Shown: in pieces, positions 3,284 to 54,081 of the stretch
How positions within the stretch are numbered: position 1 is the stretch's first letter
Layout of the letters: each line of letters opens with the position of its first letter
Notes under the pieces: model-generated
The model's database searches: none
What the model saw: the letters and a program-made list of their open reading frames with translations, nothing else
What the model was told of the DNA's origin: nothing
From: a virus
Taxonomy: Duplodnaviria; Caudoviricetes
DNA: 64,000 bases
Virus record (IMG/VR): IMGVR_UViG_3300038679_000051
Location: 64,001-128,000 of that record
Direction: 5' to 3' (one strand)
Position numbers and translations under genes: made by a program

Positions 3284-3328
3284 GAAATCACCCCAATTTG
3301 AGGATGCGTCGAACGGGCCGATTTCATA

Positions 3329-3619
3329 TTATGATTTTTTCTTAGTTGGTTTTCTCTTGGTTTTTCGTTTAGTTTGTGCGGATCGCATCATGGCCGTATC
3401 ATATCCGGCCATGATGGCATTGGCAAACCAACCAATCATCAATCCGCGCTGGTCCTGCACTATGCCTTCCTTAGTGAAGACGCTAAATCTTTTGCAGAAT
3501 TCCGAAGTCCATTTCTGTGCATCCAACGTGTGCGGCCAACGTTGTTTCTCCGTTTCGATCATCACTTTTATCCACCCATCTGGACCACATTGCTTTTTGC
3601 GCTGCCGTTGCTTTTTCAT
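3329..3619 (-). CDS. hypothetical protein bracketed by a direct repeat
   Basis: 96-aa ORF between repeats at 3294-3320 and 3635-3661. Confidence 0.55.
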   Translation of the reverse strand: MKKQRQRKKQCGPDGWIKVMIETEKQRWPHTLDAQKWTSEFCKRFSVFTKEGIVQDQRGLMIGWFANAIMAGYDTAMMRSAQTKRKTKRKPTKKKS

Positions 3620-3631
3620 GTCTTGTTCCTT

Positions 3632-3922
3632 TCACAATTTGAGGATGCGTCGGGTGGGCCGGCGTTTGTCTTGTTTTACTTTTGTCCGTTTTGCCAATTC
3701 AGCCTCATAAATATGAAGATTAAGATGTCGTGCCGCCTCCTTCCCAATGACAAAGGTTTCGTCATATCAATGATCATCTGGGAATGAGCCGCCACCGGAT
3801 CTCAACGTAATTCCGGCGACGGCTCTTTTCCTAATCATCCTTATTGTATTGATTAAGTGCTGATCACTCATTTCTGAGATTTTTATGATCGTCCCATCTC
3901 TCGTCTCGTGCTCATATTCCAT
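3632..3922 (-). pseudogene. hypothetical gene with an internal in-frame TGA
   Basis: ATG at 3922 (MEYEHETRDG...GGGSFPDDH), TGA at 3769-3767, same frame continues (YDETFVIGKEAARHLNL...RRILKL) to TGA at 3634-3632. Confidence 0.5.
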
Positions 3923-3939
3923 GTCGACGATCCTTTGAA

Positions 3940-4413
3940 TTATTTTAACGTAATGACGTCGTCCGACACCGTAATTCTGCGTCCTTTCACCAAGCGCATC
4001 AACGTATAATGAAAAGCCTCCATTTCATTGCGGCCTTTTGCCCAACGACCGGCGACCAATGACACTGGAACGGTGTTAGTTCCGTCTTGCATGCTACGCG
4101 AGATGACCTTGAATAACCTATCCTTGTCTGATACGGTTTGACTCTGAATCTTGCGACTCTTGCGGCCCCTGCGGCCCCTGCGGCCCCTGCCGTTCTCGCT
4201 CTTGCTTTTGTTCTTACCTCGTGTCCGTCTGGTCTGGCGCATTTCATCAACGTCGATGTTGATGTTGAGACTTGCCGCAATTTCATTGATTTCATTGAGA
4301 GCAGCGACATGTTTGCTCCGTTCGAGTTTCAGATCTTCCAGATTTTTCTTCAATTCAGCGATCATTTGCTTGTGCATCGTTCTTCTCCCTATCTTGGGCG
4401 TCTCGCGCCACAT
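3940..4413 (-). CDS. hypothetical basic protein
   Basis: Coiled-coil N-terminus and an Arg/Gly-rich tract (GRRGRRGRK). Confidence 0.55.
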   Translation of the reverse strand: MWRETPKIGRRTMHKQMIAELKKNLEDLKLERSKHVAALNEINEIAASLNINIDVDEMRQTRRTRGKNKSKSENGRGRRGRRGRKSRKIQSQTVSDKDRLFKVISRSMQDGTNTVPVSLVAGRWAKGRNEMEAFHYTLMRLVKGRRITVSDDVITLK

Positions 4414-4437
4414 TTTGTGCGTTGAACGTCCACACGC

Positions 4438-4674
4438 TCAACGTTGTCGGCTTTTCTTTCGCGCCACATTTTGTTCAATGTCATCGATTAATGCATCCAT
4501 GCGCCTACATATTTGGCCATAATGAACTTTCATCCATTTTTTATCCAATTTCAGTGCATTTATCTGGCGTTTCGCATTCGCACTCTTAGGTAATTGATCG
4601 TAATTTACGAACGCATGTGATTCACGCGAAATGAGTCTAGCCCAAGCATCATATTTAGGTGATTTCATCTCCAT
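4438..4674 (-). CDS. hypothetical protein
   Basis: ORF with RBS, co-oriented with neighbours. Confidence 0.5.
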   Translation of the reverse strand: MEMKSPKYDAWARLISRESHAFVNYDQLPKSANAKRQINALKLDKKWMKVHYGQICRRMDALIDDIEQNVARKKSRQR

Positions 4675-4709
4675 ACCTCGTTTTTAACGACATGGGTTGA
4701 ATTCGTAAA

Positions 4710-5195
4710 TCATTTTCTCTTTTTGATTTTTATTGCGGTCCATCTACCATCGACATACTTAAACGGTCGATCGTGCCGTTCAGTGGTTACTGTGATCGTT
4801 GCATCTTCACATTTTGCCGAAATGCCGTCGATTTTTTCTACGCTGATGTTCTGCACTGCGAGCAATTCTTTTACTTGGTCTGGAAGCTTCTCGAACGTGA
4901 TCTCACCCATGGTCATCATCTCCCTTATCAAAATGTAATTGTTGATTTTAAGGTGCCGTTTCATCCAAACGTGCCTGATGTCAAAGAAATCAGTGGCCAT
5001 CTTAGCGTAGGCAATGCGTTCCGATTCATCCGAATGTTTAATTGATCGTCTACAAAACAATGCGCGTTCCTCAGCCATGTCCGCAAGATGTAAAATTATG
5101 TCATTGGCCTCGACCAATTTGTTTGATTTAAATAGATCCAATGCCGTGCGATGCATTAATGTCACGTCTTTCGTCCATACGTCCATCATGTTCAT
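4710..5195 (-). CDS. hypothetical protein
   Basis: ORF with an AGGAG RBS. Confidence 0.55.
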   Translation of the reverse strand: MNMMDVWTKDVTLMHRTALDLFKSNKLVEANDIILHLADMAEERALFCRRSIKHSDESERIAYAKMATDFFDIRHVWMKRHLKINNYILIREMMTMGEITFEKLPDQVKELLAVQNISVEKIDGISAKCEDATITVTTERHDRPFKYVDGRWTAIKIKKRK

Positions 5196-5257
5196 TGTTG
5201 ATTCTCCTAGGTTACGTTTATTAATACGTCTACATCAATCACTAAAAACAGAAAACG

Positions 5258-13555: not shown

Positions 13556-13807
13556 CTAACAGCTAAAGAGAATGTGTCGGTGCGTCTTAGGATTGTCTTC
13601 GCAACGACAGGGATTCGGTTGACCACTGTGAAACTTTTTATCTTTGGAGACTTTCCATCCACTGTTCACCGGTTGTTCCGAGTTAAGCCTTCTCGTCGCT
13701 TCCCTATTCGTCAAACTCGTACAGACGGAAGCATAACAGATTCCTAAACTGTAGATGGTAAAATCCTCGGCCTTCGTTGTCTTGGTCATCATCGTTTTTG
13801 TCTTCAT
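13556..13807 (-). CDS. hypothetical protein
   Basis: Starts directly after the ligA 3' duplicate; C-terminal PCRCEDNP...HILFSC. Confidence 0.5.
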   Translation of the reverse strand: MKTKTMMTKTTKAEDFTIYSLGICYASVCTSLTNREATRRLNSEQPVNSGWKVSKDKKFHSGQPNPCRCEDNPKTHRHILFSC

Positions 13808-13893
13808 TTGATCATCTCCAAAAATTGTTCCTCGCTAATCACTTTCGTGCCATACTTCTCAGCTTTTTTGGTCTTGCTACTTTGGCTTGACGG
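13807..13893 (-). repeat. diverged duplicate of the ligA 3' end
   Basis: Encodes SSQSSKTKKAEKYGTKVISEEQFLEMIK versus LigA SSQSSKTRKAAKYGTKVISEEQFLEMIK (14670-14756); most differences are at third codon positions. Confidence 0.85.
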
Positions 13894-14104
13894 TCAATCT
13901 TTTCCTAAGCGCCTCGGCGAGTATTTCCACGTTTTCCAGGCTGTAATCATCTTTTAATGCAACCCTAAACGGATCTGAGTCGTGCTTACAGTATCGTTCA
14001 AATTCCTCTAGTTCTTCCGCATGGCGGGACAACAACCGCTTGCGGTTCTCATTATTTATCGCATCCCACTGAATATACCTGTCAACCGCTTCTCTTATGT
14101 TCAT
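13877..14104 (-). CDS. hypothetical protein between ligA and its 3' duplicate
   Basis: RBS GGAGG; stop codon falls within the duplicate. Confidence 0.5.
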   Translation of the reverse strand: MNIREAVDRYIQWDAINNENRKRLLSRHAEELEEFERYCKHDSDPFRVALKDDYSLENVEILAEALRKRLTVKPK

Positions 14105-14153
14105 CCCGCCTCCCCTAAGTTGGCGAATTCCTCTTTGCAGTAAACTACCGCTA

Positions 14154-14576
14154 TCATTTTATTTCTCTTACTACAAAGGCAAAGACATCGTCGGCATCGT
14201 CATCACGATAAATGAAATCGTATTCTTCATCCTCATCTTTTTCCAACTTCGTTTTTAACCAATGAAGTTTACGACGGGCCAAGAATTGTTTTTTGCTACC
14301 TTTGTTCTGATCTTCCGGAATTCCGCTTTTGCGAGCGCGTCGCTTCCAGTCCTTGAGTTCCGCAGCACGAAGTGGATCTTTCAAGCTGACGACAACGCGC
14401 AAGTCTTCCTCTAGCTCTTGCCAATCGTCGCTTTCACGTTCGAGCATGCGTTCACATAAACTCTGTCGAGCGGCATCATATGCGTTTTTAGCACGATAAA
14501 AATTTAACTGTGTTGGATCTAATCCTAGATGGTCAATAACATGTTGCGTCGTTGCTACGGCAAATCGTTTCATCAT
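14154..14576 (-). CDS. hypothetical protein between ligA and its 3' duplicate
   Basis: RBS AGGAG; 140 aa. Confidence 0.55.
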   Translation of the reverse strand: MMKRFAVATTQHVIDHLGLDPTQLNFYRAKNAYDAARQSLCERMLERESDDWQELEEDLRVVVSLKDPLRAAELKDWKRRARKSGIPEDQNKGSKKQFLARRKLHWLKTKLEKDEDEEYDFIYRDDDADDVFAFVVREIK

Positions 14577-39758: not shown

Positions 39759-39773
39759 TTTCTCATCCTTCCG

Positions 39774-41655: not shown

Positions 41656-41678
41656 TCAAAACGATTTTAATCTCCTTG

Positions 41679-42193: not shown

Positions 42194-42253
42194 CCCGTGA
42201 CGGGGAGCGCTTGTTCCTCTCCCCGTTTCGACCATTCGGTCTCGTCAGACGGG
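42194..42253 (-). ncRNA. type I hammerhead ribozyme (H3)
   Basis: CCCGT-CTGACGA-GACC(GAAT)GGTC-GAAA-CGGGGAG..CTCCCCG-TC/ACGGG; GUC site; stem I covaries with the other copies. Confidence 0.9.
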
Positions 42254-42329
42254 TTTGTTCTCCTTCAGTCAAGATTTTAAAATGTTTTTGGAAGTGCGGG
42301 TAAAAACCGTATTCCATCCTTGATGGGGT

Positions 42330-42614
42330 CTAAACTTTTCTCATCACTGTCCTGATTGGACATCGCAATTCTACCCATCCAGCCGCTTTACCTGCTTTGA
42401 AGATTATCTTCTTCGGTTTGTTGTTCCATTCATGATCAATGGACAGATCGAGCATTTCATTCAACTCATCGTAACTCAGTTCAACAGCTGGCTGTTCCAT
42501 CATTCCTTCAATGAGTTCATTTAATTCCTTAATTTTACTAACCACCTTAGTTAGCATTAATTTCCGTAATTCAGTTGCATCCAACAGTCTCTCTTCATTC
42601 ATTCTTTTCTCCAA
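42330..42614 (-). CDS. hypothetical protein
   Basis: Co-oriented ORF. Confidence 0.45.
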   Translation of the reverse strand: MEKRMNEERLLDATELRKLMLTKVVSKIKELNELIEGMMEQPAVELSYDELNEMLDLSIDHEWNNKPKKIIFKAGKAAGWVELRCPIRTVMRKV

Positions 42615-42643
42615 TCTTATCTGGATCCCTCAATTTGGTTTGA

Positions 42644-42952
42644 TTACTTTGCCCCGTCAATTCTTATTCCTTTAAAATTTTCTTTGTTTTTAGATGCAAG
42701 AAATTTTTCAATGGCTTTTCTTTCGTCTTTGCTTAAATCATAATCCGACATATTAAAATCAATTTCATCTTTACCATCCCAATCGATTTCACCATCATAT
42801 GTAAAAACGTATGCTATTGGTACAAAACTGCTTTTATCTTTTGTTCCAATTTTTTGTGCCCCTATGCCAGTGTAAACACAATCTGATTTTTCCCATGTAA
42901 CTATGCCTAATCTCCATCCTGATTCTAAAATTGCATCTATCTCTTTCCGCAT
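42644..42952 (-). CDS. hypothetical protein bracketed by a duplicate of the VWA gene 3' end
   Basis: 25-bp repeat at 42626-42650 and 42962-42986; AT-rich. Confidence 0.55.
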   Translation of the reverse strand: MRKEIDAILESGWRLGIVTWEKSDCVYTGIGAQKIGTKDKSSFVPIAYVFTYDGEIDWDGKDEIDFNMSDYDLSKDERKAIEKFLASKNKENFKGIRIDGAK

Positions 42953-42965
42953 GTTTACTCCTCCC

Positions 42966-44288
42966 TCAATTTGGTTTGATTACTTTTCCCCATGTGGGCA
43001 TTTGATTTGAGGATGATACGACATACCACAACATTGGGTATGATTTCTGTTCTGGCCATTCTAGATAACCGTCGGTGATGACTACGTTGACGTCACCGAT
43101 CAAACCGCGTTCTTCTGCCTCTTTCAGTGCTCTGACGATCGACGTCCCACCACGACCGTGGATTTTAATTTTCTTCCAATCACCTTTCCGGTATTTGCTG
43201 ACGTGTTCTATGCCATGATCAAATTCAATTAATCTGATTTTAGATCGGTAGGCGAGTTTTTCAATGTTGCTGAACGCTTCACTGATTTCATCCGGTCCCA
43301 TTGATCCAGACGTATCACAGAATACGCTTAGATCAACCATCGCCCTGCTGGTCGATCCCGGTATGCCGAATCTAGGGAGTCGGCGATTCAATCTGGAAAA
43401 CGTATTGCGTCTTCCGCCGCATTTCTTCCCCATCCATTCGTTCATCTCACGCATCCAATTAGTGCGTACTTCCTTCAATGCTTTGATGGCTTCTTCAAGA
43501 TGACCCGGTGCGTTTCCAGCGGACTTACATGTCTGTGCGACCATGCCATCAACAATCGCACGAGCATCATCCTCATTTGCCGTGCTGTTATCCCACATAC
43601 CATGATCATCAACCATTTCTGGTTTAGCACCGCACGTCGGACACGTATGTTCATCCTTCTCCTGACCCTGATCATCCTGATTTTGACTACCTCCACCACC
43701 TTGGCCTTGATTCTGGCCTTGATTCTGGCCTTGACCCTTCTGATTCTGGCCTTGACCCTTACCCTTACTCTGGTCATTTTTTGCATTCGGGTCGAAATGA
43801 ATGACCATTGCACCGCATGTCGGACAGATAGTAGAATTTTTCTTCAACCAGTCGTAATACTGTTCTGTGCCGAGATTGCTTTCCGGTGCCGTATACCATA
43901 CGACACTATTTGGAAGATAACATTTTTCGCTATAATCTTTGCCCACGATCTTGATGTTTGGATTATCTTTTGTGCCATTGACAATCGCATCAGCCGCGAT
44001 GTTCCAACATTCCTTGATCCTACTCATTTTCCTGATGCAGTGCAATCTGATGATATGATCAATTTCATGTATGATCACACATGCTAATCCCTCATTACTG
44101 AGACTATCGACGAATTCACGATTGTAGACCGAATCCACCGTGCCATCAGAAATGACCGACACGCCCATCGTTTTACAGTCTCTAGCATTTACCTCACGCC
44201 ACCTCATCATTGAAGCGAAAGTCCCATACCATGGCTTCCGCATAAGAAGTTGGCAGCGCACTTTTTGAATTCTTTCCATTTGGATCAT
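42966..44288 (-). CDS. DUF2201-like metallopeptidase plus VWA-domain protein
   Basis: HEIDH (HExxH), WNIAAD, Q/G-rich linker, MIDAS-like DTSGS, GRGGTS, ITDG. Confidence 0.85.
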   Translation of the reverse strand: MIQMERIQKVRCQLLMRKPWYGTFASMMRWREVNARDCKTMGVSVISDGTVDSVYNREFVDSLSNEGLACVIIHEIDHIIRLHCIRKMSRIKECWNIAADAIVNGTKDNPNIKIVGKDYSEKCYLPNSVVWYTAPESNLGTEQYYDWLKKNSTICPTCGAMVIHFDPNAKNDQSKGKGQGQNQKGQGQNQGQNQGQGGGGSQNQDDQGQEKDEHTCPTCGAKPEMVDDHGMWDNSTANEDDARAIVDGMVAQTCKSAGNAPGHLEEAIKALKEVRTNWMREMNEWMGKKCGGRRNTFSRLNRRLPRFGIPGSTSRAMVDLSVFCDTSGSMGPDEISEAFSNIEKLAYRSKIRLIEFDHGIEHVSKYRKGDWKKIKIHGRGGTSIVRALKEAEERGLIGDVNVVITDGYLEWPEQKSYPMLWYVVSSSNQMPTWGKVIKPN

Positions 44289-44359
44289 TTGTCACCTCCT
44301 TCTCTAGTATTTTTGTCAAACATAAACCGTGGGATGGAACAACAATTGAAAGGAACATC

Positions 44360-45415
44360 ATGTTCAACTGGATCAAAACTCAAAATTCTTTACCTCCTTT
44401 CATCGCAGTCGTCAACTGTGATGACTGCGGTGTTGAAATGACGAGGAAAATACGTCGCGAATCAGATTTACAAATTACTAAACATCATTGTAAACGATGT
44501 ACTGCGAAAAGACAATGGCAGGACCCAAAGTTTCGTGAACTCGTGGTTTCAAGCAGTAGGAAAATTTGGAATGACGAGGAACGTCGTACTAAAATGAGTA
44601 AGATACGAACTGATCCTATTCACGTTGCTAAACTCATTGAGAGGAATAAGACAATCAAACCAGACCCAATAAAGGCGTCGATTGCAGCTAAAGCAACTTG
44701 GCAGAAAATTTTATCGGATCATGAACGACATGTTGCTGCCATAAAAGCAAGAACGAGACAAGCAAAAGAAGCATGGACAAACGACGAATTTCGCAATAAG
44801 GTCGTCATGAATAATAGAAAAAATTGGCAAAACGATGAATATCGTACATCAATCGTCGAATCGTCGAAAGAATTGTGGAAAAATAAGGAGTATAGAGATA
44901 AGATACTCAATAAATTACAAGATCCGGAATATCGCATCAAAATGGCAGAGAAAATGCGCAATAAGTGGCGCACCGACGAACAATTTAGACAAAAAATGCG
45001 CGACCAACCAAAAGTTTCAAGCATTCAAAAGACGCTTTATTCCATATTAGATGATCTTAAAATCAATTATTTTAAAGAACGTGAAGATGGACCGTCAGAC
45101 AAAGAATGTATGATCGGTCCGTATCAATTCGATTGTGTCATTCCTCGTGGCAACAAAACGTTACTCATCGAATGTCAGGGTGATTATTGGCATTCAAAGC
45201 CGGACATCATCAGTAGAGATGCGGCAAAATCTTCTTATATAATGAATAATTTTCCAAATCAATATGAAATTAGATATCTTTGGGAACATGAATTTTCACA
45301 GAAAGATAGAATCGTCAATACTATTAAGCATTGGCTCGACATTAACCAGATCGACGTCGTTGACTTTGAATCACAAAATTGCGTGTCTAACGGCTCATTA
45401 ACTGATCGACGATGA
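44360..45415 (+). CDS. free-standing homing-endonuclease-like protein (PD-(D/E)xK, DUF559/Vsr-like)
   Basis: Helical W..P.FR repeats then YQFDCVIP..LIECQGDYWH..YLWEHE; the only long plus-strand gene in the minus-strand block. Confidence 0.7.
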   Translation: MFNWIKTQNSLPPFIAVVNCDDCGVEMTRKIRRESDLQITKHHCKRCTAKRQWQDPKFRELVVSSSRKIWNDEERRTKMSKIRTDPIHVAKLIERNKTIKPDPIKASIAAKATWQKILSDHERHVAAIKARTRQAKEAWTNDEFRNKVVMNNRKNWQNDEYRTSIVESSKELWKNKEYRDKILNKLQDPEYRIKMAEKMRNKWRTDEQFRQKMRDQPKVSSIQKTLYSILDDLKINYFKEREDGPSDKECMIGPYQFDCVIPRGNKTLLIECQGDYWHSKPDIISRDAAKSSYIMNNFPNQYEIRYLWEHEFSQKDRIVNTIKHWLDINQIDVVDFESQNCVSNGSLTDRR

Positions 45416-45999
45416 GGATTACGCTGTTCTCGGAGACATCCAATCACGATGAGACCGGCATCGTGCCGTAATCGCCGCCCTATCTGGATTAATGGCACAT
45501 CCTCCGCAACCTCTGAAATGACGACGTTGGTGTCCTTAACCAAATAATCGTTGATTCGTCTAGTCCCCGTTGGAAGATTAAAGTGAACGATGCCTTTGTC
45601 ATCGAACTTTTCAATCGTTCCCTTATCCAACATTTTCTTAATCAATTCATCGCGTTGTTTGATGATTTCCTCCGGTGGGGTGGGGATTTTACTTACCGCC
45701 TTGCGTTTGGATGCAATGATCTTTGGTATTCCGGCCATCAACGCATCTATGTCCGCATAATAATTGTTGTTGATGCGAAATTGTTTGCCTTGAATATAAA
45801 CGTTCCAATCAAACGTCTTGCCGTCAATTTCAATTTGCATTTGCGCAAGCAACAGGGAACCATACCTGGCAAATTGTGAACCTCTAGCTTCCGGAGAGAT
45901 GGAGATCACGTATCTCACGCCGTCAATCTTGGGCCATTTCTCCCCAAGTCTCTGTCTGACCAACGCATTGATCTCGTCTATCAATTCTTTGCCGTTCAT
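45259..45999 (-). CDS. hypothetical protein; 3' end overlaps the antisense nuclease gene
   Basis: RBS GAGGAG; last ~50 codons run antisense to the nuclease. Confidence 0.45.
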   Translation of the reverse strand: MNGKELIDEINALVRQRLGEKWPKIDGVRYVISISPEARGSQFARYGSLLLAQMQIEIDGKTFDWNVYIQGKQFRINNNYYADIDALMAGIPKIIASKRKAVSKIPTPPEEIIKQRDELIKKMLDKGTIEKFDDKGIVHFNLPTGTRRINDYLVKDTNVVISEVAEDVPLIQIGRRLRHDAGLIVIGCLREQRNPHRRSVNEPLDTQFCDSKSTTSIWLMSSQCLIVLTILSFCENSCSQRYLISY

Positions 46000-46046
46000 T
46001 CTTGCTCCTCTCTTTCTTCGTCATGAGCGTCGTGACCAATTTCGTT

Positions 46047-46736
46047 TCAACATTCTTTCTCCTTTAACCATTCCCCAAACTTCTTGTCGGTCGCGTCGGC
46101 TCCCGTTTGCATTTCACCTACGAAGCGTTTAAACGTCTCGCTTCTTTCATCGTCGCCCAGTTTAATCAACACCGCATCGGCAGCCACGATGAAATGCATG
46201 AAATTGTTCTTATTGAGATGCACTCTTCGGTATGAGATCCAGTCGATCAACTTTCCAATTTCACCGAATTGCGACTGCAGTCGCAGACTGAGTTCTTTGG
46301 CCATCAGCTTCAAATTGTCCAGCGGGAAGTCGCCGGATTTCATCTTGTTCTTTTTCATTCGTTCTCTTCGCGTTTTCTGTTTCGGATCATAGATCAGAAG
46401 TCCGTCTTTGAACTTTATGTCGTCCGGCAATTTCGTGTAAGGATAGTCAATTACTATTGCACCGTATTTCTTTGCCAATTCACATGCTCTGTTTACGTCT
46501 TGACCGACAAAGACCGGTTTTTCGCTTACTCTTATGTTGTTCCAGTTGGTTTTAATCCAGGTCAGATCGGCGTCTTCCAACGATTCTTTCATGCAGGTAG
46601 CGCTTATTGCTGCGATGATCTCTTCTCTTCCACCGTAAATCACTTCACCGGTGGCGTTGATCAGTGGTTCTGGATTGACGCTCATCTCCCACGTGCCGTC
46701 CTCGTTTTTAACTGCTCCCAGCACTTCCATTTCCAT
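46047..46736 (-). CDS. hypothetical protein
   Basis: AGGAGG RBS just downstream of H4. Confidence 0.55.
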   Translation of the reverse strand: MEMEVLGAVKNEDGTWEMSVNPEPLINATGEVIYGGREEIIAAISATCMKESLEDADLTWIKTNWNNIRVSEKPVFVGQDVNRACELAKKYGAIVIDYPYTKLPDDIKFKDGLLIYDPKQKTRRERMKKNKMKSGDFPLDNLKLMAKELSLRLQSQFGEIGKLIDWISYRRVHLNKNNFMHFIVAADAVLIKLGDDERSETFKRFVGEMQTGADATDKKFGEWLKEKEC

Positions 46737-46759
46737 GTTATCCTCCTTTCGATTAGGCT

Positions 46760-46816
46760 CCCATTAGGGGAGAAAATCCTCCCCTTTCATTCCTGCCACG
46801 GAAATCATCAGATGGG
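46760..46816 (-). ncRNA. type I hammerhead ribozyme with a weakened stem II (H4)
   Basis: CCCAT-CTGATGA-TTTCC(GTGGCA)GGAAT-GAAA-GGGGAG..CTCCCC-TA/ATGGG; first stem II pair is U-U. Confidence 0.7.
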
Positions 46817-47107
46817 CAAAGATGAGTGATAAAACTGAAGAACTAAATGTCCTTGTACTTCTTCACTGACCAGACCGTTTTCCAGCGGCGGATTGACGTC
46901 GTTCGAGAAATTTGCAAGGTGTCCATCCGGTACGGAAACGATCGAACAATGTGGATAACCGCTGCCAAAGTCTAAAGCAATTTTTCTTGCTTCTTCTTGA
47001 TTGAGATGTCCTGGAAGGACGATCGGCTTCACATCATCGTCGAGTCGTCCTTCCATGGTTGGAACTACGATGGTAACATTCATTTTGTCAGCGATCCCCT
47101 CGGTCAT
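46808..47107 (-). CDS. hypothetical protein ending in the H4 core
   Basis: Ends CCC ATC TGA; the stop codon is part of CUGAUGA. Confidence 0.45.
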   Translation of the reverse strand: MTEGIADKMNVTIVVPTMEGRLDDDVKPIVLPGHLNQEEARKIALDFGSGYPHCSIVSVPDGHLANFSNDVNPPLENGLVSEEVQGHLVLQFYHSSLPI

Positions 47108-47113
47108 GACTGT

Positions 47114-47770
47114 TTATTTCTCCAGCACGTCCACTTTGATGTCGGCGATCGCTAAAGCGACGTTAGCGAATCCTGACGCGCCGAGCGTCTTGCGGGCGAT
47201 TTCAGCACGAACCGCTCTTTCCATCGTGCCGATCTTGGAGAGTTTCGTGCGGATTTCGATGATCTTCCGTTGGGCGTCATCGATCGCCTTTTCCAGCATT
47301 TCGTTGCGTTTGATCGCTTTCTTTTCCTCGTCGTTCAACTTCCGTTCCAGTTGCGCATCGTACAGGTTGTTGCAGTATGAGTGTTCTTTGTCAACCGAAA
47401 CGACCACGCTCAACATGAGCGTTTCTGCCTTTTCACACGGTCCCACGATTGACGCCTGCATGCTGCATTTCACTTTCACGTTCAGATCCTTGTACGCTTC
47501 CAGCAGCTTTTTCACTTTCGGCGTCCAGTAATTGGTCGCTGACTGAGAAGTCATCTTTTCGAAGCCGTCCTTGTTCTCTTTCAGTTCTTTTTTCGTCGCC
47601 GCCAGTTCGGCCACGATCTTTTTCTCCTCCACCATCAATTTGTTTTCAAATTCAGAGACCTTAATTGCCACCAGATCTCCCGTCGTCACCTGGGCGCTCA
47701 GCGTGGTGACGTTCTTCACATCGAGTTCTTTCTTCATCAGCATCTTCCTCCTTGAAAAGGTGGTTCCCAC
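47114..47770 (-). CDS. coiled-coil hypothetical protein
   Basis: 218 aa, heptad-rich. Confidence 0.55.
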   Translation of the reverse strand: MGTTFSRRKMLMKKELDVKNVTTLSAQVTTGDLVAIKVSEFENKLMVEEKKIVAELAATKKELKENKDGFEKMTSQSATNYWTPKVKKLLEAYKDLNVKVKCSMQASIVGPCEKAETLMLSVVVSVDKEHSYCNNLYDAQLERKLNDEEKKAIKRNEMLEKAIDDAQRKIIEIRTKLSKIGTMERAVRAEIARKTLGASGFANVALAIADIKVDVLEK

Positions 47771-47787
47771 GTCCCCTTCTTGACTTT

Positions 47788-47849
47788 CCCATTAGGGGAG
47801 GATTTCCTCTCCCCTTTCGGCTGGTCGTCATCCAACCTCATCAGATGGG
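47788..47849 (-). ncRNA. type I hammerhead ribozyme (H5)
   Basis: CCCAT-CTGATGA-GGTTGG(ATGACGA)CCAGCC-GAAA-GGGGAG..CTCCCC-TA/ATGGG-AAAGTCA; loop TGAC complements tail GTCA. Confidence 0.9.
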
Positions 47850-48128
47850 CCGTTGAAGTTCAGAGCCAGGATACGTTTCAAAAAATTCAGGATCTTCAGG
47901 ATCAAGACACGGAAATTCTTTCTTTATCCTTGCTGGAATCCCCATCAAATCATCCAGCGTCGCCCTGCGTTCAGTGTGATCATCCGTCAAATCACCCACG
48001 TTGTAAGCCGTCCCGTTCCCATTGACGCAATGCTCTTCTGCCACGTAGACCATTTTACCATTTTCCAAAACAAGAATTTGGTAAAGTCCGTCAGCATCCA
48101 CGTTAATTGACGTCCTAATCTTTGCCAT
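47841..48128 (-). CDS. hypothetical protein ending in the H5 core
   Basis: Ends CGG CCC ATC TGA. Confidence 0.5.
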   Translation of the reverse strand: MAKIRTSINVDADGLYQILVLENGKMVYVAEEHCVNGNGTAYNVGDLTDDHTERRATLDDLMGIPARIKKEFPCLDPEDPEFFETYPGSELQRPI

Positions 48129-48164
48129 CTGATTTCCTCCTCTTGAGTAAATCTGAACGTGGTC

Positions 48165-49334
48165 TTAATCAGGAGAACCTCTTGGTGCCATTTCCGTTTC
48201 GTCTTTTGACATCAGTTGTTTTGTCAACTCGAAGATTTTGGTTCTGCTCGGTATTTCTTTCAGCCAAATGTTGTTCGTCTTTGACATGATGTCGGCGACG
48301 GCTGCATTAGCCACGATCACAATTCCCATGGTTTGATATTGCGGCTTAAGGATTTGTGAGGCTAAGACTATGGCCATGTCTTTTTCCTTCGAGTCGCAGA
48401 GATGTTCCACGAAATCAAAGACATTGCTGACTTGCGCTTTGGTTACTTTCTTGTCCAAATTTCTGATATATGAAACCACACCCCACACCAGACCGGCCAT
48501 CAGATCACGGCTTATTTCTCGTCCCAGATCATAGATCGGTTTCACGCCATAATTCAGGATGTCCTTCGGTTCGATCTCGAAATTGACCTTTTCATATTGG
48601 ATGGCCAATTCACGACCGATCAATCCCGCTCTGACGTCACGCACGACGTCCAATGGGAATTCTGGGGCATGTTTCTCAATGCGTCCCACTGCCTCCCACA
48701 ATCGCGGTGATGGTTCGATCTTGAAATCCAATGAACCTTTTTCTCTCGTGCAGAGATTGGCCGGATCTGAACCGATGAACTGAATGATCCGCGTAACTTC
48801 CGTATTTGTTCTGTTGGTCACGTAGCTCATCCATTCCGTCATGTAATCCTCTGACATGGTCAATTCTACGTGGCAGAATCGTCCAATGAATGCCTTACAG
48901 AAATCGTTGACGTGGTATCCGTTGTTGTAATTGCCAGCACTGACCACTGACCAACCAGTGAAATTATCATTGTCGTCGTATGAGGTTGGTAACTCGTACG
49001 TGCCAATTCTCCTCTCAACGATCAATTGGAACGCCGCCTGAATGACCGGGTCATCTGCTCGATTTAATTCATCCAGAAAGAACAACCCCTGTCCCTCGCG
49101 GGGCAACTCCGCTGGTGGGCGATAGATCGTATAGCCGTTTTCTTTGTCCGGAAATCCTCGGAGATCCGTGGCCTCGATCTGTGCAGCCCGATAATCCACA
49201 AAACCAATTTGCATTTCTTGTGTAACTTGTCTGACGATGCTTGACTTACCCATCCCATGATGACCCCAAATCATGATGGGCACTTGTACTTTGTGACACA
49301 GTCCGATCGCACCCTTCAATTCAGCTACATTCAT
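48165..49334 (-). CDS. MoxR-like AAA+ ATPase
   Basis: Walker A GHHGMGKS, DLRGFP, Walker B FLDELNRA, AGN, RF.H, SPRLW. Confidence 0.85.
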   Translation of the reverse strand: MNVAELKGAIGLCHKVQVPIMIWGHHGMGKSSIVRQVTQEMQIGFVDYRAAQIEATDLRGFPDKENGYTIYRPPAELPREGQGLFFLDELNRADDPVIQAAFQLIVERRIGTYELPTSYDDNDNFTGWSVVSAGNYNNGYHVNDFCKAFIGRFCHVELTMSEDYMTEWMSYVTNRTNTEVTRIIQFIGSDPANLCTREKGSLDFKIEPSPRLWEAVGRIEKHAPEFPLDVVRDVRAGLIGRELAIQYEKVNFEIEPKDILNYGVKPIYDLGREISRDLMAGLVWGVVSYIRNLDKKVTKAQVSNVFDFVEHLCDSKEKDMAIVLASQILKPQYQTMGIVIVANAAVADIMSKTNNIWLKEIPSRTKIFELTKQLMSKDETEMAPRGSPD

Positions 49335-49423
49335 TTCTGTCTCCTTTCATCGCCCCCAACCATTAAATCCGTTCTTCTATCGCGTAAACATTGCGAAATG
49401 TCTGTCATCTCAGAGAACCATTG

Positions 49424-49660
49424 TCATACAGAACGATTAGAAGTTTGGTTCATGAACAGCCCTTCACGTTCGATGCGTGATAATTGCCTTAGATCAGCGG
49501 CAGATAAATCATGGCGCGTCCCCGACGGGGAGATGAACGTCCAGTCGGATTCACATCGCCATCCAGATTCCCAACAACGTGTCACTGCATCTAACCACAT
49601 TTTGTACTTCTCAGAACTCGTTTTCGTTTCATTCATTTGTAACCTCCAACTCAGTACCAC
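49424..49660 (-). CDS. hypothetical protein
   Basis: WTFISPSG..HDLSAADL motif; probable start at internal MNET. Confidence 0.45.
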   Translation of the reverse strand: MVLSWRLQMNETKTSSEKYKMWLDAVTRCWESGWRCESDWTFISPSGTRHDLSAADLRQLSRIEREGLFMNQTSNRSV

Positions 49661-49820
49661 GAATCAGAATTGATCGGCCATCGTCAAACGTCACTTCCCA
49701 CATACAAGGCGGGACTTCCCCGACAATTTTAGTGATTTTGCCGACCATGCCATCATATTTTGGATGCGTCTCACCCTTCACTCTAATCGTAACGCGATCA
49801 CCGACTTTGTTTTTGCTCAT
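49629..49820 (-). CDS. small SH3/KOW-like protein
   Basis: KVGDRVTI...GKIT..V.FDDG. Confidence 0.45.
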   Translation of the reverse strand: MSKNKVGDRVTIRVKGETHPKYDGMVGKITKIVGEVPPCMWEVTFDDGRSILIRGTELEVTNE

Positions 49821-49829
49821 GCACCCCTC

Positions 49830-50282
49830 CTAATATACGGAAAATCCACCACAGTTCTGTAGAAATGTAATGAATTCCTTTAGGTGATCCAAATTAATTC
49901 TGTATGGACTGACCAGATCATCCCTACTGCCCTTGTACGTTTTCATATTGACAAACGCATTGGTTTTCTCGTCAATTACCAACGAATTTGTAGGAAGACG
50001 TAATTCATTGTCACCAAGAACAAAACCAAATTCGGTAGCCAGTGCTGGTTTGTTGATAATTTCGTTTAATTCCTCGGCTACGCGCAGACATTGTTCGTCG
50101 GTCAATCCCGCACCGTCGTTATACCTCATTGCAACGTACACTTCCTCAGAAATCAACTCATTATTGTTTCGTTTGTTGATGATGCCCAACAATTCATGTA
50201 GTGGATGCCATGACCAAATATTAGCCCTGAAATACTCGCCCTGTTCATTTCTCGGTTTAGTCCCGGTTACGTCCATCCCCAT
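49830..50282 (-). CDS. conserved phage protein
   Basis: MGMDV...GEYFRANIWSWHPL...F..FLQNCGGFSVY. Confidence 0.6.
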   Translation of the reverse strand: MGMDVTGTKPRNEQGEYFRANIWSWHPLHELLGIINKRNNNELISEEVYVAMRYNDGAGLTDEQCLRVAEELNEIINKPALATEFGFVLGDNELRLPTNSLVIDEKTNAFVNMKTYKGSRDDLVSPYRINLDHLKEFITFLQNCGGFSVY

Positions 50283-51037
50283 TCATTTACCCTCCTTTTC
50301 GTCTCTCCATGTTTTATCTCCTCTCTAAGGGCTGGGTCCTTGACATATTGAAGTGCCCAACCATCCTGTTGCGCTGCTACCATACATATTTCCAGTGTCT
50401 GTTCTTTAACAAATTGAAGTGCGTAACAATTTTGTCTTACTGCTGCCATGCACATTTCCGGCGTCTGTTCTTTGTTGTTCGCAGAATATTTGACATATCT
50501 AAGTGCCCAACCATGTTGTTTTACTGCCGCCATACATATTTCTGGCGTTTGTTCTTTGACATATCGAAGTGCATCACCATCTTGTTGCACTGCTGCCATA
50601 CATATTTCTGGCGTCTGTTCTTTGACATATTCAAGTGCCGAACCATTTTGTTGTACTGCTGCCAGATATAATTCCGGCGTCTGTTCCTTGACATAATCGA
50701 GTGCAAAACCGTTTCGTTTTACTGCTACCATGCACAATTCCGGCGTCTGTTCCTTAACATAATGAAGTGCCAGACCATCTCGTTTTACCGCCGCTAGACA
50801 TATGTCTGGCGTCTGCTCTTCAACAAATTCAAGCGCTCGACGATTTTGTTGCACTGCCGCCATGCATATTTCAGGAAATTGCTCATTTAGGTGTTTGAGT
50901 ACATTCCCTAAACCTATTTCATCATTCATCAATTTCTTGACAATCGTTGCATCCTTCATTCGTTCATAATCAATCTTCCTCATTGCCTGGATCACGTCAT
51001 TTAATTGTTCTTTGGTTACGTTCGTCATCCAGTGCAC
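50267..51037 (-). CDS. DUF4116-like repeat protein with MHW leader (GTG start)
   Basis: About 8 repeats; flanked by a perfect 37-bp direct repeat at 50311-50347 and 51038-51074. Confidence 0.75.
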   Translation of the reverse strand: MHWMTNVTKEQLNDVIQAMRKIDYERMKDATIVKKLMNDEIGLGNVLKHLNEQFPEICMAAVQQNRRALEFVEEQTPDICLAAVKRDGLALHYVKEQTPELCMVAVKRNGFALDYVKEQTPELYLAAVQQNGSALEYVKEQTPEICMAAVQQDGDALRYVKEQTPEICMAAVKQHGWALRYVKYSANNKEQTPEMCMAAVRQNCYALQFVKEQTLEICMVAAQQDGWALQYVKDPALREEIKHGETKRRVNEWGWT

Positions 51038-51137
51038 GTTTTATCTCCTCTCTAAGGGCTGGGTCCTTGACATACTTAAGTGCCTGACCATCTTGTCTTA
51101 CTGCCGCTGCCAGCCGTCGTTGCAGTCGTTGCTCCTT

Positions 51138-51458
51138 TCATCTCCATTCCCACAGACATGAGTTTATTTTGATGCGTTTATTGCTTTTCCGCAACCTGTC
51201 GCCCAGGTCTTTCAGAGATGACTTATTGAACCAGAAACCAACTCGTTCCCATTTATCCTTGGGATACCAATCACAAGCGACAACATCATTTTTTACTACT
51301 TCCAGAAACAACCGCCCATCATCCAACAGGAGAACGACCAGATTCTCCCTGACGGCAAACGCCTTGAAATCATAAGCTTTGCCCATGATTTCTTCTCGTT
51401 CAAATTCATTTGCCGTTCTGGGTTTCATATACAGTTGTGCAAGTGCATTCATTCCCAT
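51138..51458 (-). CDS. hypothetical protein
   Basis: RBS AGGAGG. Confidence 0.45.
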   Translation of the reverse strand: MGMNALAQLYMKPRTANEFEREEIMGKAYDFKAFAVRENLVVLLLDDGRLFLEVVKNDVVACDWYPKDKWERVGFWFNKSSLKDLGDRLRKSNKRIKINSCLWEWR

Positions 51459-51476
51459 TTTTAATCCTCCTTGATG

Positions 51477-51665
51477 TCAGAACTCGTCCACATCGCCATA
51501 TTTGGTTAGAACGGCGATGACTGCCTCTTTGATTTGCCCAGCGATTTTCTCAACGTCTGCAGTCCCATCACGGATCTTAATTAATTCAAGATCAATAAAG
51601 ATCTCGACGTCTTCCTTCTTCTGTGAAGTCAGAATAATGTTAACGTCCAGTTGGCTGACTGTCAT
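51477..51665 (-). CDS. hypothetical protein
   Basis: ATGA coupling. Confidence 0.45.
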   Translation of the reverse strand: MTVSQLDVNIILTSQKKEDVEIFIDLELIKIRDGTADVEKIAGQIKEAVIAVLTKYGDVDEF

Positions 51666-51904
51666 CGCTCGTTTCTCCTTAATGGTAGTTTTCTGAGTTC
51701 GTTCTCGATTGCTTTCCCAATATAAGGGCTGAACATAGATAACAATGCCGGTGAAATCTTTTTCTTTACCTTCGGTTCCATCCGTTCAATATTTGTGGAG
51801 GGAACCTGCCGAGCACAACATTTCTTCTTCTTTTTGCCGCTGCCACACGAACATGGCTTATTCATGTTTGCAGTGTCCTTGACATATGCCGTGGTACTTG
51901 CCAT
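51662..51904 (-). CDS. SEC-C metal-binding motif protein
   Basis: NKPCSCGSGKKKKKCC. Confidence 0.7.
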   Translation of the reverse strand: MASTTAYVKDTANMNKPCSCGSGKKKKKCCARQVPSTNIERMEPKVKKKISPALLSMFSPYIGKAIENELRKLPLRRNER

Positions 51905-51921
51905 ATCTCATTGGTTCTCTC

Positions 51922-52248
51922 CTACCATTCAGTCCACACGTCACACACCAGTTTAGTGAGGTTCGCTTCTTCGATTTCGTACTTGCCCCGCATTTCCGGT
52001 AAGGCGTAAACGTATTTCCCGTCTTCCTTGATGACGAACGTACAAAAGCCCGAATCAAAGAAGACGTCGGTACCGTCTGGTACTTCAAACGAGCCGTGCT
52101 CGTCGATTTTATCATCGATATTGAAACCAGGACTTTCCTTGATGGCTTTCTTGGAGATTAAAACCATCTTCATTCGGTCGTGGCAAACGGCGTAGTTGAG
52201 CGTCGTCTTTCCACGTTTGGTCTTGATCTTATCCTTTATCTGTGTCAT
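51922..52248 (-). CDS. hypothetical protein
   Basis: ATGA coupling. Confidence 0.45.
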   Translation of the reverse strand: MTQIKDKIKTKRGKTTLNYAVCHDRMKMVLISKKAIKESPGFNIDDKIDEHGSFEVPDGTDVFFDSGFCTFVIKEDGKYVYALPEMRGKYEIEEANLTKLVCDVWTEW

Positions 52249-52622
52249 TTGGTCATATCGTTTCTAGTGTTTTCATCCATTCCATACAGCATATCACGGA
52301 CGGCCTTAATTGCTTTCTCAAGGTCTTCTGATGAGATCTCATCAGGCTCGCTCATGAGATGGTCCCACATGTATTCGGCCAATGCAGGGATGAACGAATT
52401 GTCTAAATCATTCACGGTCGTTGCGGTTCCGCTCATCATCATGACTACGGAAAAATCTACTGCCCTCATCTGCCAACCAATGACGTACTTCATGCTGAGA
52501 TAACAAAGATTGTTCAGTTCTTCAGTGGTTGGCACGTGCGTAGTAAAATCAACCAGTACCGGTGCGTTCTTGTTCTTGTCCTCAATCATCTTAATCCAAT
52601 CATGTAGTTCTTTTCTTGTCAT
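52245..52622 (-). CDS. hypothetical protein
   Basis: RBS AAGGAG. Confidence 0.5.
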   Translation of the reverse strand: MTRKELHDWIKMIEDKNKNAPVLVDFTTHVPTTEELNNLCYLSMKYVIGWQMRAVDFSVVMMMSGTATTVNDLDNSFIPALAEYMWDHLMSEPDEISSEDLEKAIKAVRDMLYGMDENTRNDMTK

Positions 52623-52682
52623 GGCGTTCTCCTTAAATGGTTATTAGTGTTTTCTGAGTTCGTTTTATTCATCCGTTCCTCG

Positions 52683-52928
52683 TTATTCATTAAGGCGCTG
52701 GAAGTTCTTAAAATCATCACTCCAAATTTGACGACTCGCATCGTTTTCAAATTTCACGATCATTTTGGGTCGACCGTCTTCAAATGGTTCAACGTCAGTC
52801 ACTACACCAGTCATTCCTTTACTGACATGAAGATGCTGTTTTTCGCCATCAGACCAGAAAACATCATTCAAAACGACAACCCGATCACCCTTTATCATTT
52901 TCTTTTCCCTTTCTTTTGTCATTTTCAT
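52683..52928 (-). CDS. small SH3/KOW-like protein
   Basis: KGDRVVVL...GMTGVV; starts just after H6. Confidence 0.45.
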   Translation of the reverse strand: MKMTKEREKKMIKGDRVVVLNDVFWSDGEKQHLHVSKGMTGVVTDVEPFEDGRPKMIVKFENDASRQIWSDDFKNFQRLNE

Positions 52929-52953
52929 TTATTATTTCCCAACATCTTAGTTT

Positions 52954-53012
52954 CCCATTAGGGGATATGAGATCCCCTTTCGACTAGTTACTAGCTAGTC
53001 TCATCAGATGGG
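52954..53012 (-). ncRNA. type I hammerhead ribozyme (H6)
   Basis: CCCAT-CTGATGA-GACTAG(CTAGTAA)CTAGTC-GAAA-GGGGAT..ATCCCC-TA/ATGGG-AAACTA; loop TAGT complements tail ACTA. Confidence 0.9.
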
Positions 53013-53119
53013 TCAATTATGGTTCCGAGGCATATCCCATACAGTAATCACATTCATAAATCATATGCATATGACATCTACATCCCGGCGGTCTACTTCT
53101 GACATCCGCCTCTTCCAAA

Positions 53120-53413
53120 TCACACCTGAAAAACATCCGGTGCACGCCAGGTGATCCATTCCCTATCCCAGAATCTCAAATCACTCTTTTCATCTGCTGT
53201 TCGGACCATAAACATACCATTCCCCATATCCATAACAAACCATCTATAAACACCATCTGGTTTGTCAGACATATAACAGACCGGTCGTTCCCCGTTCTCC
53301 AACAGAAAAACATCACACTCCCAACATTTCACAATCACATGCGCACCAACTAGTTCAGCCAACGCATCGAGATCATCATGGTTTTTCACGTTATAATCCC
53401 CCTGAACAATCAC
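53120..53413 (-). CDS. hypothetical protein
   Basis: Co-oriented; strongly G/T-biased coding strand. Confidence 0.45.
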   Translation of the reverse strand: MIVQGDYNVKNHDDLDALAELVGAHVIVKCWECDVFLLENGERPVCYMSDKPDGVYRWFVMDMGNGMFMVRTADEKSDLRFWDREWITWRAPDVFQV

Positions 53414-53604
53414 AAAACACGTACCAACTCAGTTTCATCATCAAACGAAATAACTTCATTTATTTCACAACTAGTAGTATAATACACAATGTCACGCTTC
53501 GAATAATTAAAGTTAGAACAACCCATAATCTCTTGAACAGACTTAAACGTCAAATCATCACTCAAAAAAACACCATCAGACTTCCGCCTAATCCTAAATC
53601 TCAT
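53410..53604 (-). CDS. hypothetical protein
   Basis: GTGA overlap with the next gene; G/T-biased. Confidence 0.4.
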   Translation of the reverse strand: MRFRIRRKSDGVFLSDDLTFKSVQEIMGCSNFNYSKRDIVYYTTSCEINEVISFDDETELVRVL

Positions 53605-53868
53605 CCAAATGCCTCATCACTCATCGCATTCCCTCCCAATCATCGAAACAATCCCGTTGTTGGTGTTGGTTGAAGAACCCTTTAAGTGCGTGTAAGAGGC
53701 TTGATTATCGCAAATATATTATATATTTTAATTATTTCACTAATAGGATATTAACAGCTTGCTAATGCTTACTTAATAGCTCCCGTATGCGACCCTAATG
53801 CACATAGAGCAAGCGTTGACGCTCATTGTGCAGCTCATTGTGCACTGACTTATTGCACACCGAGCAAG

Positions 53869-54081
53869 CGTTGACGCTCATTGTGCATCAATACGTTCTG
53901 GGTTAGTTTGAACCAGAACAAAGAAAACCGCTATCCACATTTAAGATGCTCCGGTTTTCCCGGCTACATTTTACGTGGAAATCACCCAATCTAACGCTTG
54001 CGGCGTTAGCTCTAAGGGTGACTTGTTGCGGCAAAACGTTGACGCTCATTGTGCATCAATACGTTCTGGGTTAGTTTGAAC
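53869..54081. repeat. 45-bp direct repeat duplicating the 3' end of the receiver gene
   Basis: CGTTGACGCTCATTGTGCATCAATACGTTCTGGGTTAGTTTGAAC at 53869-53913 and 54037-54081; partial third copy near 53807-53832. Confidence 0.85.

Follow-up and report, generated by a model that had tools for sequence, protein, structure and literature searches.

Direct repeats derived from gene 3' ends bracket small genes in an uncultured jumbo phage genome

Repeat pairs at gene boundaries

The stretch of DNA analyzed here, a 64-kb window, comprises bases 64001 to 128000 of the 320,399-bp contig IMGVR_UViG_3300038679_000051 (IMG/VR). The record describes a virus whose genome carries direct terminal repeats and is estimated to be 100% complete. 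It represents a complete, uncultured jumbo phage of ~320 kb with a G+C content of 41.5%, the sequence of which is present in groundwater and coal metagenome runs. From base 1 to ~55,700 of the window, nearly all genes are located on the minus strand and are tightly packed, with stop and start codons often overlapping, and this region is rich in small genes without a known family. The subject of this study is a set of direct repeats that bracket genes in this region. A preliminary description of the window had listed eight repeat pairs and read them as a single rule, in which accessory genes are flanked by a duplicate of the upstream gene's 3' end and its coupling site as the result of one general, integrase-independent mechanism (circle integration or unequal crossover).

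All eight pairs were found. They are named here by the start positions of their two copies (window coordinates, unless stated to be genome coordinates) and, where applicable, by the conserved gene involved:

3294/3635: identity 24/27
ligA, 13807/14670: identity 67/87
AAA, 29522/30870: identity 34/39, with a 5-nt gap
36331/37038: identity 95/99 plus a 13-nt indel
VWA, 42626/42962: identity 25/25, extended 29/30
50311/51038: identity 37/37, extended 56/62
Receiver, 53869/54037: identity 45/45
51673/52627: gapped, identity 31/38, the weakest of the eight

In 20 second-order Markov simulations of the whole genome, no exact direct repeats of at least 18 nt were obtained at a spacing of 80 to 4000 nt; therefore, all pairs but the weakest are homologous and do not reflect chance. 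The longest exact block in the weakest pair is 16 nt, which is borderline compared with chance.

A genome-wide self-comparison returned 163 local same-strand matches. The 138 matches inside gene bodies were, with one exception, paralogue pairs or internal repeats of single genes, and the remaining local matches were located at gene boundaries. Additional cases recovered by this comparison were a third copy of the AAA 3' end (29180-29220) and, beyond the window, the pairs 8370/9210 and 47423/48398 (genome positions). As 10 of the 12 boundary pairs fall in the 64-kb window, this part of the genome is a hot region for them. For an enrichment test, the ten non-paralogue pairs were relocated at random in 3000 trials. 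A stop codon was touched by 8 of the 10 upstream copies, compared with a mean of 0.77 and a maximum of 5 after relocation, and a start codon was present within 40 nt of the end of 8 of the 10 downstream copies (~5.5% expected for each). With the two weakest pairs removed, 7 of 8 upstream copies were still at stop codons. The enrichment of repeats at gene 3' ends, a check proposed in the preliminary description, was thus confirmed, and with it the claim that the same geometry recurs nonrandomly at independent loci. A protein-level search 3' of every gene detected no diverged 3'-end remnants beyond the known ones.

A match at 27324/28655 (19/20) was rejected as a further case; it consists of a Shine-Dalgarno (SD) sequence, an ATG, and an A-rich stretch, and with a longest exact run of 14 nt it is not significant alone. 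The gene at 27344-28663 (-) encodes a 439-aa radical SAM protein of the type that some sources name "DNA repair photolyase." Its G+C content is 56%, its codon score is low, and its closest relatives are metagenome proteins with ~50% identity; it looks like a recent foreign acquisition.

The pairs fall into three kinds rather than one. In the first, the 3' end of the upstream gene is duplicated around orphan open reading frames (ORFans); this kind includes the ligA, AAA (three nested copies), VWA, and receiver loci and both pairs outside the window. The second kind (36331/37038 and 50311/51038) consists of remnants of DUF4116 genes, the upstream copy being located in a noncoding gap directly before a DUF4116 gene. 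In the third kind, the repeats lie shortly upstream of start codons (3294/3635 and the weak pair 51673/52627). The original statement that the repeat is a duplicate of the upstream gene's 3' end is therefore correct for the ligA, AAA, VWA, and receiver pairs and incorrect for the other four.

Bracketed loci and their alleles

The features of the ligA locus are as follows:

14670-14756 (-): upstream copy, the functional 3' end of the NAD-dependent DNA ligase gene 14643-16565, within the BRCT domain
13877-14576 (-): two bracketed ORFans, one of 140 aa (14154-14576) and one of 75 aa (13877-14104)
13807-13893 (-): downstream copy, a dead 29-codon ligA 3' fragment between in-frame TGA codons

Ligase adenylation, OB, and BRCT domains were all found in the product of gene 14643-16565 (Pfam). 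The fragment ends in an ATGA that it shares with the start of gene 13556-13807 (83 aa), and the stop codon of the 75-aa gene is located 14 nt within the fragment. The fragment differs from the functional copy in 20 of 87 nt and in 2 of 29 residues, and the differences include two serine codon switches (TCN versus AGY). In 200,000 simulations of 20 random substitutions, none resulted in two or fewer residue changes (mean, 13). Judging from this pattern, the fragment must have diverged within a working ligA of another lineage and arrived by recombination, because synonymous-biased divergence is impossible for a dead in-place copy bounded by in-frame stops. The two copies also end differently: the resident gene runs for 8 more codons and is followed by a 66-nt spacer, while the fragment stops at once at the ATGA overlap, as would be expected of two alleles with different neighbors. 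The ligA duplicate is thus a diverged piece of a foreign allele and not an in-place duplication of the target. As ligA, the 140- and 75-aa ORFans, the fragment, and the 83-aa gene were spanned by single contigs in three independent assemblies, the structure is not an assembly error.

At the AAA locus, three copies are nested:

30870-30911 (-): copy U, covering the 3' end of the AAA ATPase gene 30870-32525 (Pfam AAA, PHROG 8638) with its stop codon and ATGA
29549-30830 (-): two tandem DUF4116 paralogues (29549-30160 and 30171-30830) between copies U and M; Pfam E = 8e-43
29522-29555 (-): copy M, with a 5-nt deletion, ending in GAGGGAATGA, which is the start of a 112-aa open reading frame (ORF; 29187-29525)
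29180-29220 (-): copy D, the third copy, directly before the start of a 169-aa gene (28673-29182)

The stop codon of the DUF4116 gene 29549-30160 lies 4 nt within copy M, and that of the 112-aa ORF falls inside copy D. In a three-way alignment, three bases were common to copies M and D and not present in copy U, which hints at a second allele but is not decisive. The three copies fit repeated events at one variable site.

The VWA and receiver loci each carry two copies:

42962-42991 (-): VWA upstream copy, comprising the last 7 codons, the stop codon, and the first ribosome-binding site (RBS) bases of the DUF2201 metallopeptidase/VWA-like gene 42966-44288
42644-42952 (-): bracketed 102-aa ORFan, G+C content 32%
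42626-42655 (-): VWA downstream copy, 24 nt before a 90-aa gene (42330-42602)
54037-54081 (-): receiver upstream copy, covering the 3' end of gene 54046-54384 (cREC_REC receiver domain, Pfam PF20274) with its stop codon and ATGA
53914-54036 (-): 123-nt segment between the receiver repeats, containing two short hairpins and the greater part of a doubtful 48-codon ORF
53869-53913 (-): receiver downstream copy, 45/45 identical

The stop codon of the bracketed gene at the VWA locus is located 9 nt within the downstream copy. Overall, the stop codon of the last bracketed gene lies 4 to 31 nt inside the downstream copy in five pairs (genome 8370/9210, ligA, both AAA pairs, and VWA), and its frame differs from that of the donor gene in the three cases checked (ligA, AAA copy M, and VWA). 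This position is what a recombination joint at the end of the bracketed gene would give. The bracketed ORFans have no Pfam or PHROG family and no paralogue in the genome, and the Atlas search gave no useful match; the 140-aa protein of the ligA locus matched only itself among 5.8 billion proteins. Two of the inserts have an atypical G+C content (32% and 37%, versus 41.5% for the genome).

Natural variation at the repeats was assessed by placing contigs of four metagenome runs on window positions 35001 to 55000. One contig of run X3 jumps directly from 53868 to 54037, omitting 168 nt, and 45 of its bases can be placed on either side. This empty allele of the receiver locus, with one repeat copy and without the 123-nt insert, was present in two independent samples (L094 from Logan, run X3, and L095 from JGI), while the full allele was present in another JGI sample (L093) and in the reference. 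The receiver pair thus has the predicted empty allele, a 168-nt deletion with its breakpoints exactly at the repeat. The insert itself resembles nothing else in the genome, and simple duplication of the empty form thus does not account for the full one.

At the VWA locus, run X3 contigs break exactly at the edges of the repeat, with an end at 42962 and a start at 42650. Contig breaks 30 nt into longer repeats imply an assembly word of 31 nt; as the exact VWA repeat is shorter (25 nt), shared words were not the cause of the break. From these contig ends, an allele that lacks or replaces the 102-aa gene probably coexists with the full one. The empty alleles predicted in the preliminary description were accordingly observed at the receiver locus and are indicated, by contig ends, at the VWA locus.

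Contigs fetched by the genes flanking the VWA, AAA, ligA, and 3294/3635 repeats were all ~100% identical to the window and all carried the full structure. Scans with the AAA protein yielded 4 loci from IMG/VR and 74 loci from JGI metagenomes; as all of these had protein identities of at most 58% and a different gene order, they are of no use for an empty-site comparison at the nucleotide level. An 18-kb megablast against the phage collection gave no match. The exact pattern of the empty VWA junction had no match in viral contigs, a search that is uninformative, as the control repeat also had none.

The pairs of the second kind involve a 19-member paralogue family, in which 66-nt (22-residue) DUF4116 repeats follow a conserved N terminus (MHWM..KEQL.DVI) and most members of which lie in the minus-strand region of the window:

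36331-36442 (-): 3' end, stop codon, and RBS of the DUF4116 gene 36339-37034 itself
37038-37136 (-): remnant of the 3' end of gene 36339-37034, 95/99 identical with a 13-nt deletion, in the noncoding gap just before the gene start
50311-50369 (-): 3'-terminal coding part of the DUF4116 gene 50267-51037
51038-51096 (-): DUF4116 3'-end remnant, 56/62 identical (37 nt exact), 1 nt before the start of gene 50267-51037

Both upstream copies match the 3' end of their own downstream DUF4116 gene, and an intact upstream donor gene is absent. The remnants share 90 to 96% identity with the 3' end of the adjacent gene and 61 to 73% with other paralogues. These pairs reflect the birth and death of a tandem DUF4116 array, in which a paralogue would have been duplicated in tandem and most of the upstream copy then deleted.

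Within the window, 16 DUF4116 genes are spread over 1464-51037 (e.g., 1464-3283, 29549-30830, 38054-39293, and 40503-41568), often as tandem pairs, and stray 5' and 3' remnants occur at 19383-19407 and 40373-40411. Run X5 represents a variant strain in which 85% of the sampled words occur (contig depth, 2 to 6). Its contigs leave the reference at 38093, 39 nt before the stop codon of DUF4116 gene 38054-38848, and at 41020, 3 nt from that of gene 41023-41568; the ends of DUF4116 genes may thus be where the strains start to differ. Contig joints linking DUF4116 genes (e.g., 38662 to 50918) arise from the paralogous repeats and were rejected as rearrangements.

The pairs of the third kind are as follows:

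3294-3320 (-): intergenic, located 23 nt upstream of DUF4116 gene 2651-3271
3635-3661 (-): intergenic, located 16 nt upstream of the bracketed ORFan 3329-3619 (96 aa)
51673-51703 (-): weak copy, aligned with gaps, located 8 nt upstream of gene 51477-51665 and overlapping an 80-aa gene (51662-51904) in its 3' part
52627-52664 (-): its partner, intergenic, 5 nt before gene 52245-52622

Several other features were observed in and around the window. Downstream of the receiver repeat (53808-53885, minus strand), the word GCACAATGAGCGTCAACGCTTGCTC recurs together with shorter TGCACAATGAGC copies, in a 298-nt stretch without ORFs that precedes an AT-rich, promoter-like region. Contig depth over 54052-55220 was ~2.5-fold that of the flanks in runs X1 (79.8 versus 29 to 33) and X5 (11.4 versus ~5) and was not elevated in X3; this stretch may be shared with another phage in the X1 and X5 samples. 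A 66-nt inverted repeat is located at 55190-55255 and 55853-55918. At 57006-57363 and 56314-56831, in the gap between the minus- and plus-strand gene blocks, an array of 3 to 4 copies of a ~47-nt unit (ATAACTAAAAATCATAACTGTACACACATTGTCCAT) is adjoined by three small paralogous genes and may be an origin or a regulatory region. Elsewhere, tandem repeats with a 27/54-nt period occupy the genome ends (genome 1-281 and 320161-320399), and a perfect 55-nt tandem repeat is present in three copies at genome 47667-47833, between genes 47416-47670 and 47755-48084.

Origin of the repeats

The complete genome contains no match to the tyrosine recombinase family PF00589, for which the same search matched 14 of 14 control genomes, nor to the serine recombinase family PF00239, and the phage encodes its own RecA. 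This agrees with gene gain and loss that is independent of an integrase, as had been suggested. Each repeat is restricted to its own locus, and no motif common to the repeats was found beyond the SD sequence; upstream of genes, SD hexamers were enriched and AATTGAGG-type words were not. A AAATTGAGG-like word, considered as a shared recombination motif, was rejected. Likewise, no promoter- or terminator-like sites on the minus strand coincided with the VWA, receiver, and AAA repeats, and the counts of such sites were at the level of shuffled sequence. The notion of a single general cassette mechanism with its own site is not upheld by these results, and two of the pairs are decay products of DUF4116 genes.

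On balance, the repeats are probably scars of recombination between co-circulating variants in a hyperplastic accessory-gene region. Such variants would share conserved genes (ligA, AAA ATPase, VWA-like, and receiver) and differ in the small genes just downstream. In an out-of-register crossover, the end of an accessory gene of one variant (Y) would be connected with the interior of the 3' end of the other variant's conserved gene (X), and the joint would be a single illegitimate or microhomology event between otherwise collinear genomes. The product would have the order X, Y, a 3'-end fragment of X, and Z, with the alternative genes in series and the second one keeping its native translation start. 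Repeated events at one site would yield the three nested copies at the AAA locus. In a tightly packed, coupled operon, selection would leave survivors in which X is intact, Y is readable, and the start of Z is kept. The preliminary description had noted that the insertions spare the upstream gene and, in most cases, the RBS or coupling site of the downstream gene; this rule is accounted for by such selection on recombinants, and a dedicated mechanism is not needed. The retained direct repeats of 25 to 110 nt are then substrates for homologous deletion by the phage RecA and the replication-recombination machinery, which explains the presence/absence alleles. The intergenic pair 3294/3635 and the weak pair 51673/52627 are provisionally assigned to the same process. 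Between the two routes named at the outset, unequal crossover is favored, and we infer a crossover between two parents for the exact repeats, along with the direction (gain or loss) of every event.

Several observations weigh against this explanation. A parental genome with only Y or only Z was found at no site; the accessible close relatives are all ~100% identical, and the next nearest have ~50% protein identity. The two-parent origin of the exact repeats (VWA, receiver, and 50311/51038) is consequently an extrapolation from ligA. The empty VWA allele rests on contig ends, no bridging contig having been seen. The receiver "cassette," counted earlier among the accessory-gene insertions, does not fit that description well, as its 123 nt include only a doubtful 48-codon ORF and may hold no gene. 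Furthermore, a stop codon within 4 to 31 nt of the junction every time is too regular for random joints (rough odds, ~1e-4), and selection or microhomology explains this regularity loosely. Finally, integration of a circle carrying the repeat would give an identical final structure, which cannot be distinguished with contig data.

Such circles are the basis of a Campbell-type cassette traffic, in which circles with one repeat copy and the accessory genes excise and reinsert at the corresponding 3' end, in the genome of origin or in that of a co-infecting phage. Several of the repeats are exact over 25 to 45 nt, the receiver polymorphism coincides exactly with the repeats, RecA is present and an integrase is absent, and T4-type phages make circles of this kind between repeats with less than 50 bp of homology (PMC2839356). 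However, as the repeats are locus specific, a circle could reenter only its site of origin or the equivalent site of a relative, and no copy was found at a second locus. Circular junctions were likewise not seen among the assembled contigs, a type of data that would not reveal them. The origin of the first duplicated structure would also be left unexplained, and the end product is the same as that of the crossover between variants. We consider such traffic unlikely, though the strongest of the alternatives. Somewhat less probable still is that the junction between a conserved 3' end and the next start in coupled operons is a preferred entry point for promoterless genes in jumbo phages. Entry would proceed by short-homology recombination with linear or circular donors carrying the same junction, amounting to an integron-like stacking without an integrase or dedicated site. 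If this were true, the stop codon 4 to 31 nt inside the downstream repeat would be a mechanistic signature and not a product of selection.

In-place tandem duplication followed by divergence or partial deletion, with the bracketed gene as a diverged copy of its neighbor, is clear for the DUF4116 pairs, in view of the identities of the two remnants to the adjacent 3' end. Tandem DUF4116 arrays are common in the genome, and in the distant relative L066 the first two of three genes with a shared tail are 65% identical paralogues. However, the genes bracketed at ligA, AAA, VWA, and 3294/3635 resemble neither their neighbors nor the rest of the genome, while the flanking repeats are 77 to 100% identical, and the ligA fragment diverged under coding selection, which is impossible for a dead in-place copy; as an explanation for the repeats, such duplication is improbable. 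The repeats could also be functional elements, such as translation-initiation or coupling modules, RNA-processing sites, or ribozymes, kept by selection or gene conversion and equalizing the expression of successive genes. The proximity of the downstream copies to start codons (8 of 10 pairs) and an ATGA stop-start overlap in several copies are in line with this view. In contrast, a shared motif is absent, the ligA copy is constrained at the protein and not the RNA level, and natural populations can do without one copy of the receiver repeat. An Rfam search of 41000-57500 gave no match at the gathering score; the lone hammerhead-like match (RAGATH-1, 42194-42275, minus strand) scored 26.7 bits versus 56.3 (E = 0.81) and lies away from the repeats. 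Hammerhead ribozymes as repeated elements were rejected on the basis of this single weak match and a core-pattern search without hits. A functional origin thus appears very improbable. Least credible of all, and close to negligible, is an artifact in which strain variants were stitched in series by the assembler. The source metagenomes do contain strain variation, but the ligA, VWA, AAA copy D, and receiver structures were spanned by single contigs from independent assemblers and samples, and independent assemblies reproduced the first three.

Comparison with known systems

The geometry is not confined to this phage. Among distantly related jumbo phages (43 loci, 539 kb), it was found in L037/L038, L066, L029, and L075. 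In L037/L038, a 74-codon ORF is located between 24-nt repeats that contain the stop-start overlap, and in L066, an 82-residue gene is located between 49-nt repeats, with a third, unrelated gene having the same tail.

The closest known counterparts are the early-promoter/stem-loop elements (PeSLs) of T4-type phages, which flank ORFans, recombine without an integrase over less than 50 bp of homology, and give rise to mini-circles (PMC2839356). PeSL-mediated modular shuffling has been described for T4-type hyperplastic regions (Arbiol et al. 2010, PMC2839356; Comeau et al. 2014, PMC4122927). In both systems, short direct repeats flank ORFans in plastic regions of the large genome of a lytic phage, and recombination between the repeats results in insertion, deletion, or replacement by general phage recombination without an integrase. 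In the present genome, repeats flank ORFans, and the full and empty receiver alleles break at the repeat. However, a PeSL combines a sigma-70-like early promoter with a stem-loop terminator, whereas the repeats described here are coding 3' ends without such signals, and PeSLs form one dispersed motif family, whereas each repeat here is locus specific with no shared motif. PeSL cassettes are also transcriptionally autonomous and movable between sites, while the genes bracketed here lie inside a long polycistronic unit, and mini-circles have been seen in T4-type phages, while none were observed in the contigs examined here. As both the promoter-terminator composite and the dispersed motif family are lacking, the repeat system is an analogue of PeSLs and not a member.

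A second parallel is offered by mosaic joints that arise through illegitimate recombination and by the "moron accretion" of tailed phages, as described by Hendrix and co-workers and summarized in PMC2839356. As in moron accretion and the Botstein-Susskind "linker" model, gain occurs at gene boundaries, rare nonhomologous joints would be filtered by selection, and conserved flanks serve as a homologous anchor. In contrast, morons carry their own promoter and terminator and usually have no duplicated flank, whereas here the duplicated upstream 3' end is kept as a scar and the inserted genes would rely on transcription of the host operon. Integrons (attC x attI, IntI) are similar in that promoterless ORFs are stacked after a fixed point and are gained or lost singly; they differ in that the complete genome has neither an IntI-type tyrosine recombinase nor an attC-like shared structured site, and the repeats are direct copies of local coding sequence and not imperfect inverted repeats. 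Target-site duplications of transposons have a fixed length of 2 to 15 bp, are identical at birth, and surround an element with terminal inverted repeats and a transposase, unlike the variable repeats of 25 to 110 nt found here and the foreign ligA copy, and no transposase family was detected in the bracketed ORFs (Pfam and PHROG).

The ligA locus has a further counterpart in organelles. Mobile ORFs enter the 3' end of an organelle gene together with a foreign copy of that 3' end, and the resident end is displaced downstream, as in the mitochondrial atp6 element of Allomyces. The order at ligA (functional gene, inserted ORFs, and a synonymously diverged dead 3' copy) is the same. The Allomyces-type element encodes a homing endonuclease, whereas the ORFs bracketed at ligA have no detectable nuclease family. 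For a free-standing homing-endonuclease cassette in general, the inserted ORF would encode a nuclease of the HNH, GIY-YIG, LAGLIDADG, PD-(D/E)XK, or a similar family. No family could be assigned to the bracketed ORFs from Pfam, PHROG, or the Atlas, a result limited by the fact that ORFans are not well modeled.

A 7-member nuclease-like family is scattered over the genome, and none of its members lies inside a bracket. One of them, a 351-aa gene at 44360-45415 (+), is located on the opposite strand within the minus-strand block, overlaps a 246-aa minus-strand ORF (45259-45999), and has a weak match, below the cutoff, to the nuclease family REase_MTES_1575 (E = 0.0015); it may be a selfish nuclease.

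Overall, gene gain and loss without an integrase is supported, while a single general mechanism is not. The repeats look like products of ordinary recombination between related phages, and no new molecular machine is revealed. Compared with the PeSL and mosaic-joint precedents, it is unusual that the duplicated flank is retained as a visible scar. If the pattern is general, duplicated 3' ends would be a simple signature of recent gene gain in uncultured phage genomes and would help to separate accessory from core genes and to date events. ORFan gain and loss in large phages is known mechanistically for few systems, mainly the T4-type PeSLs. Beside these, the present genome is a clean natural record of gene stacking within coupled operons, combining one scar from a diverged allele, one locus with both natural alleles, and the same geometry in distant relatives.

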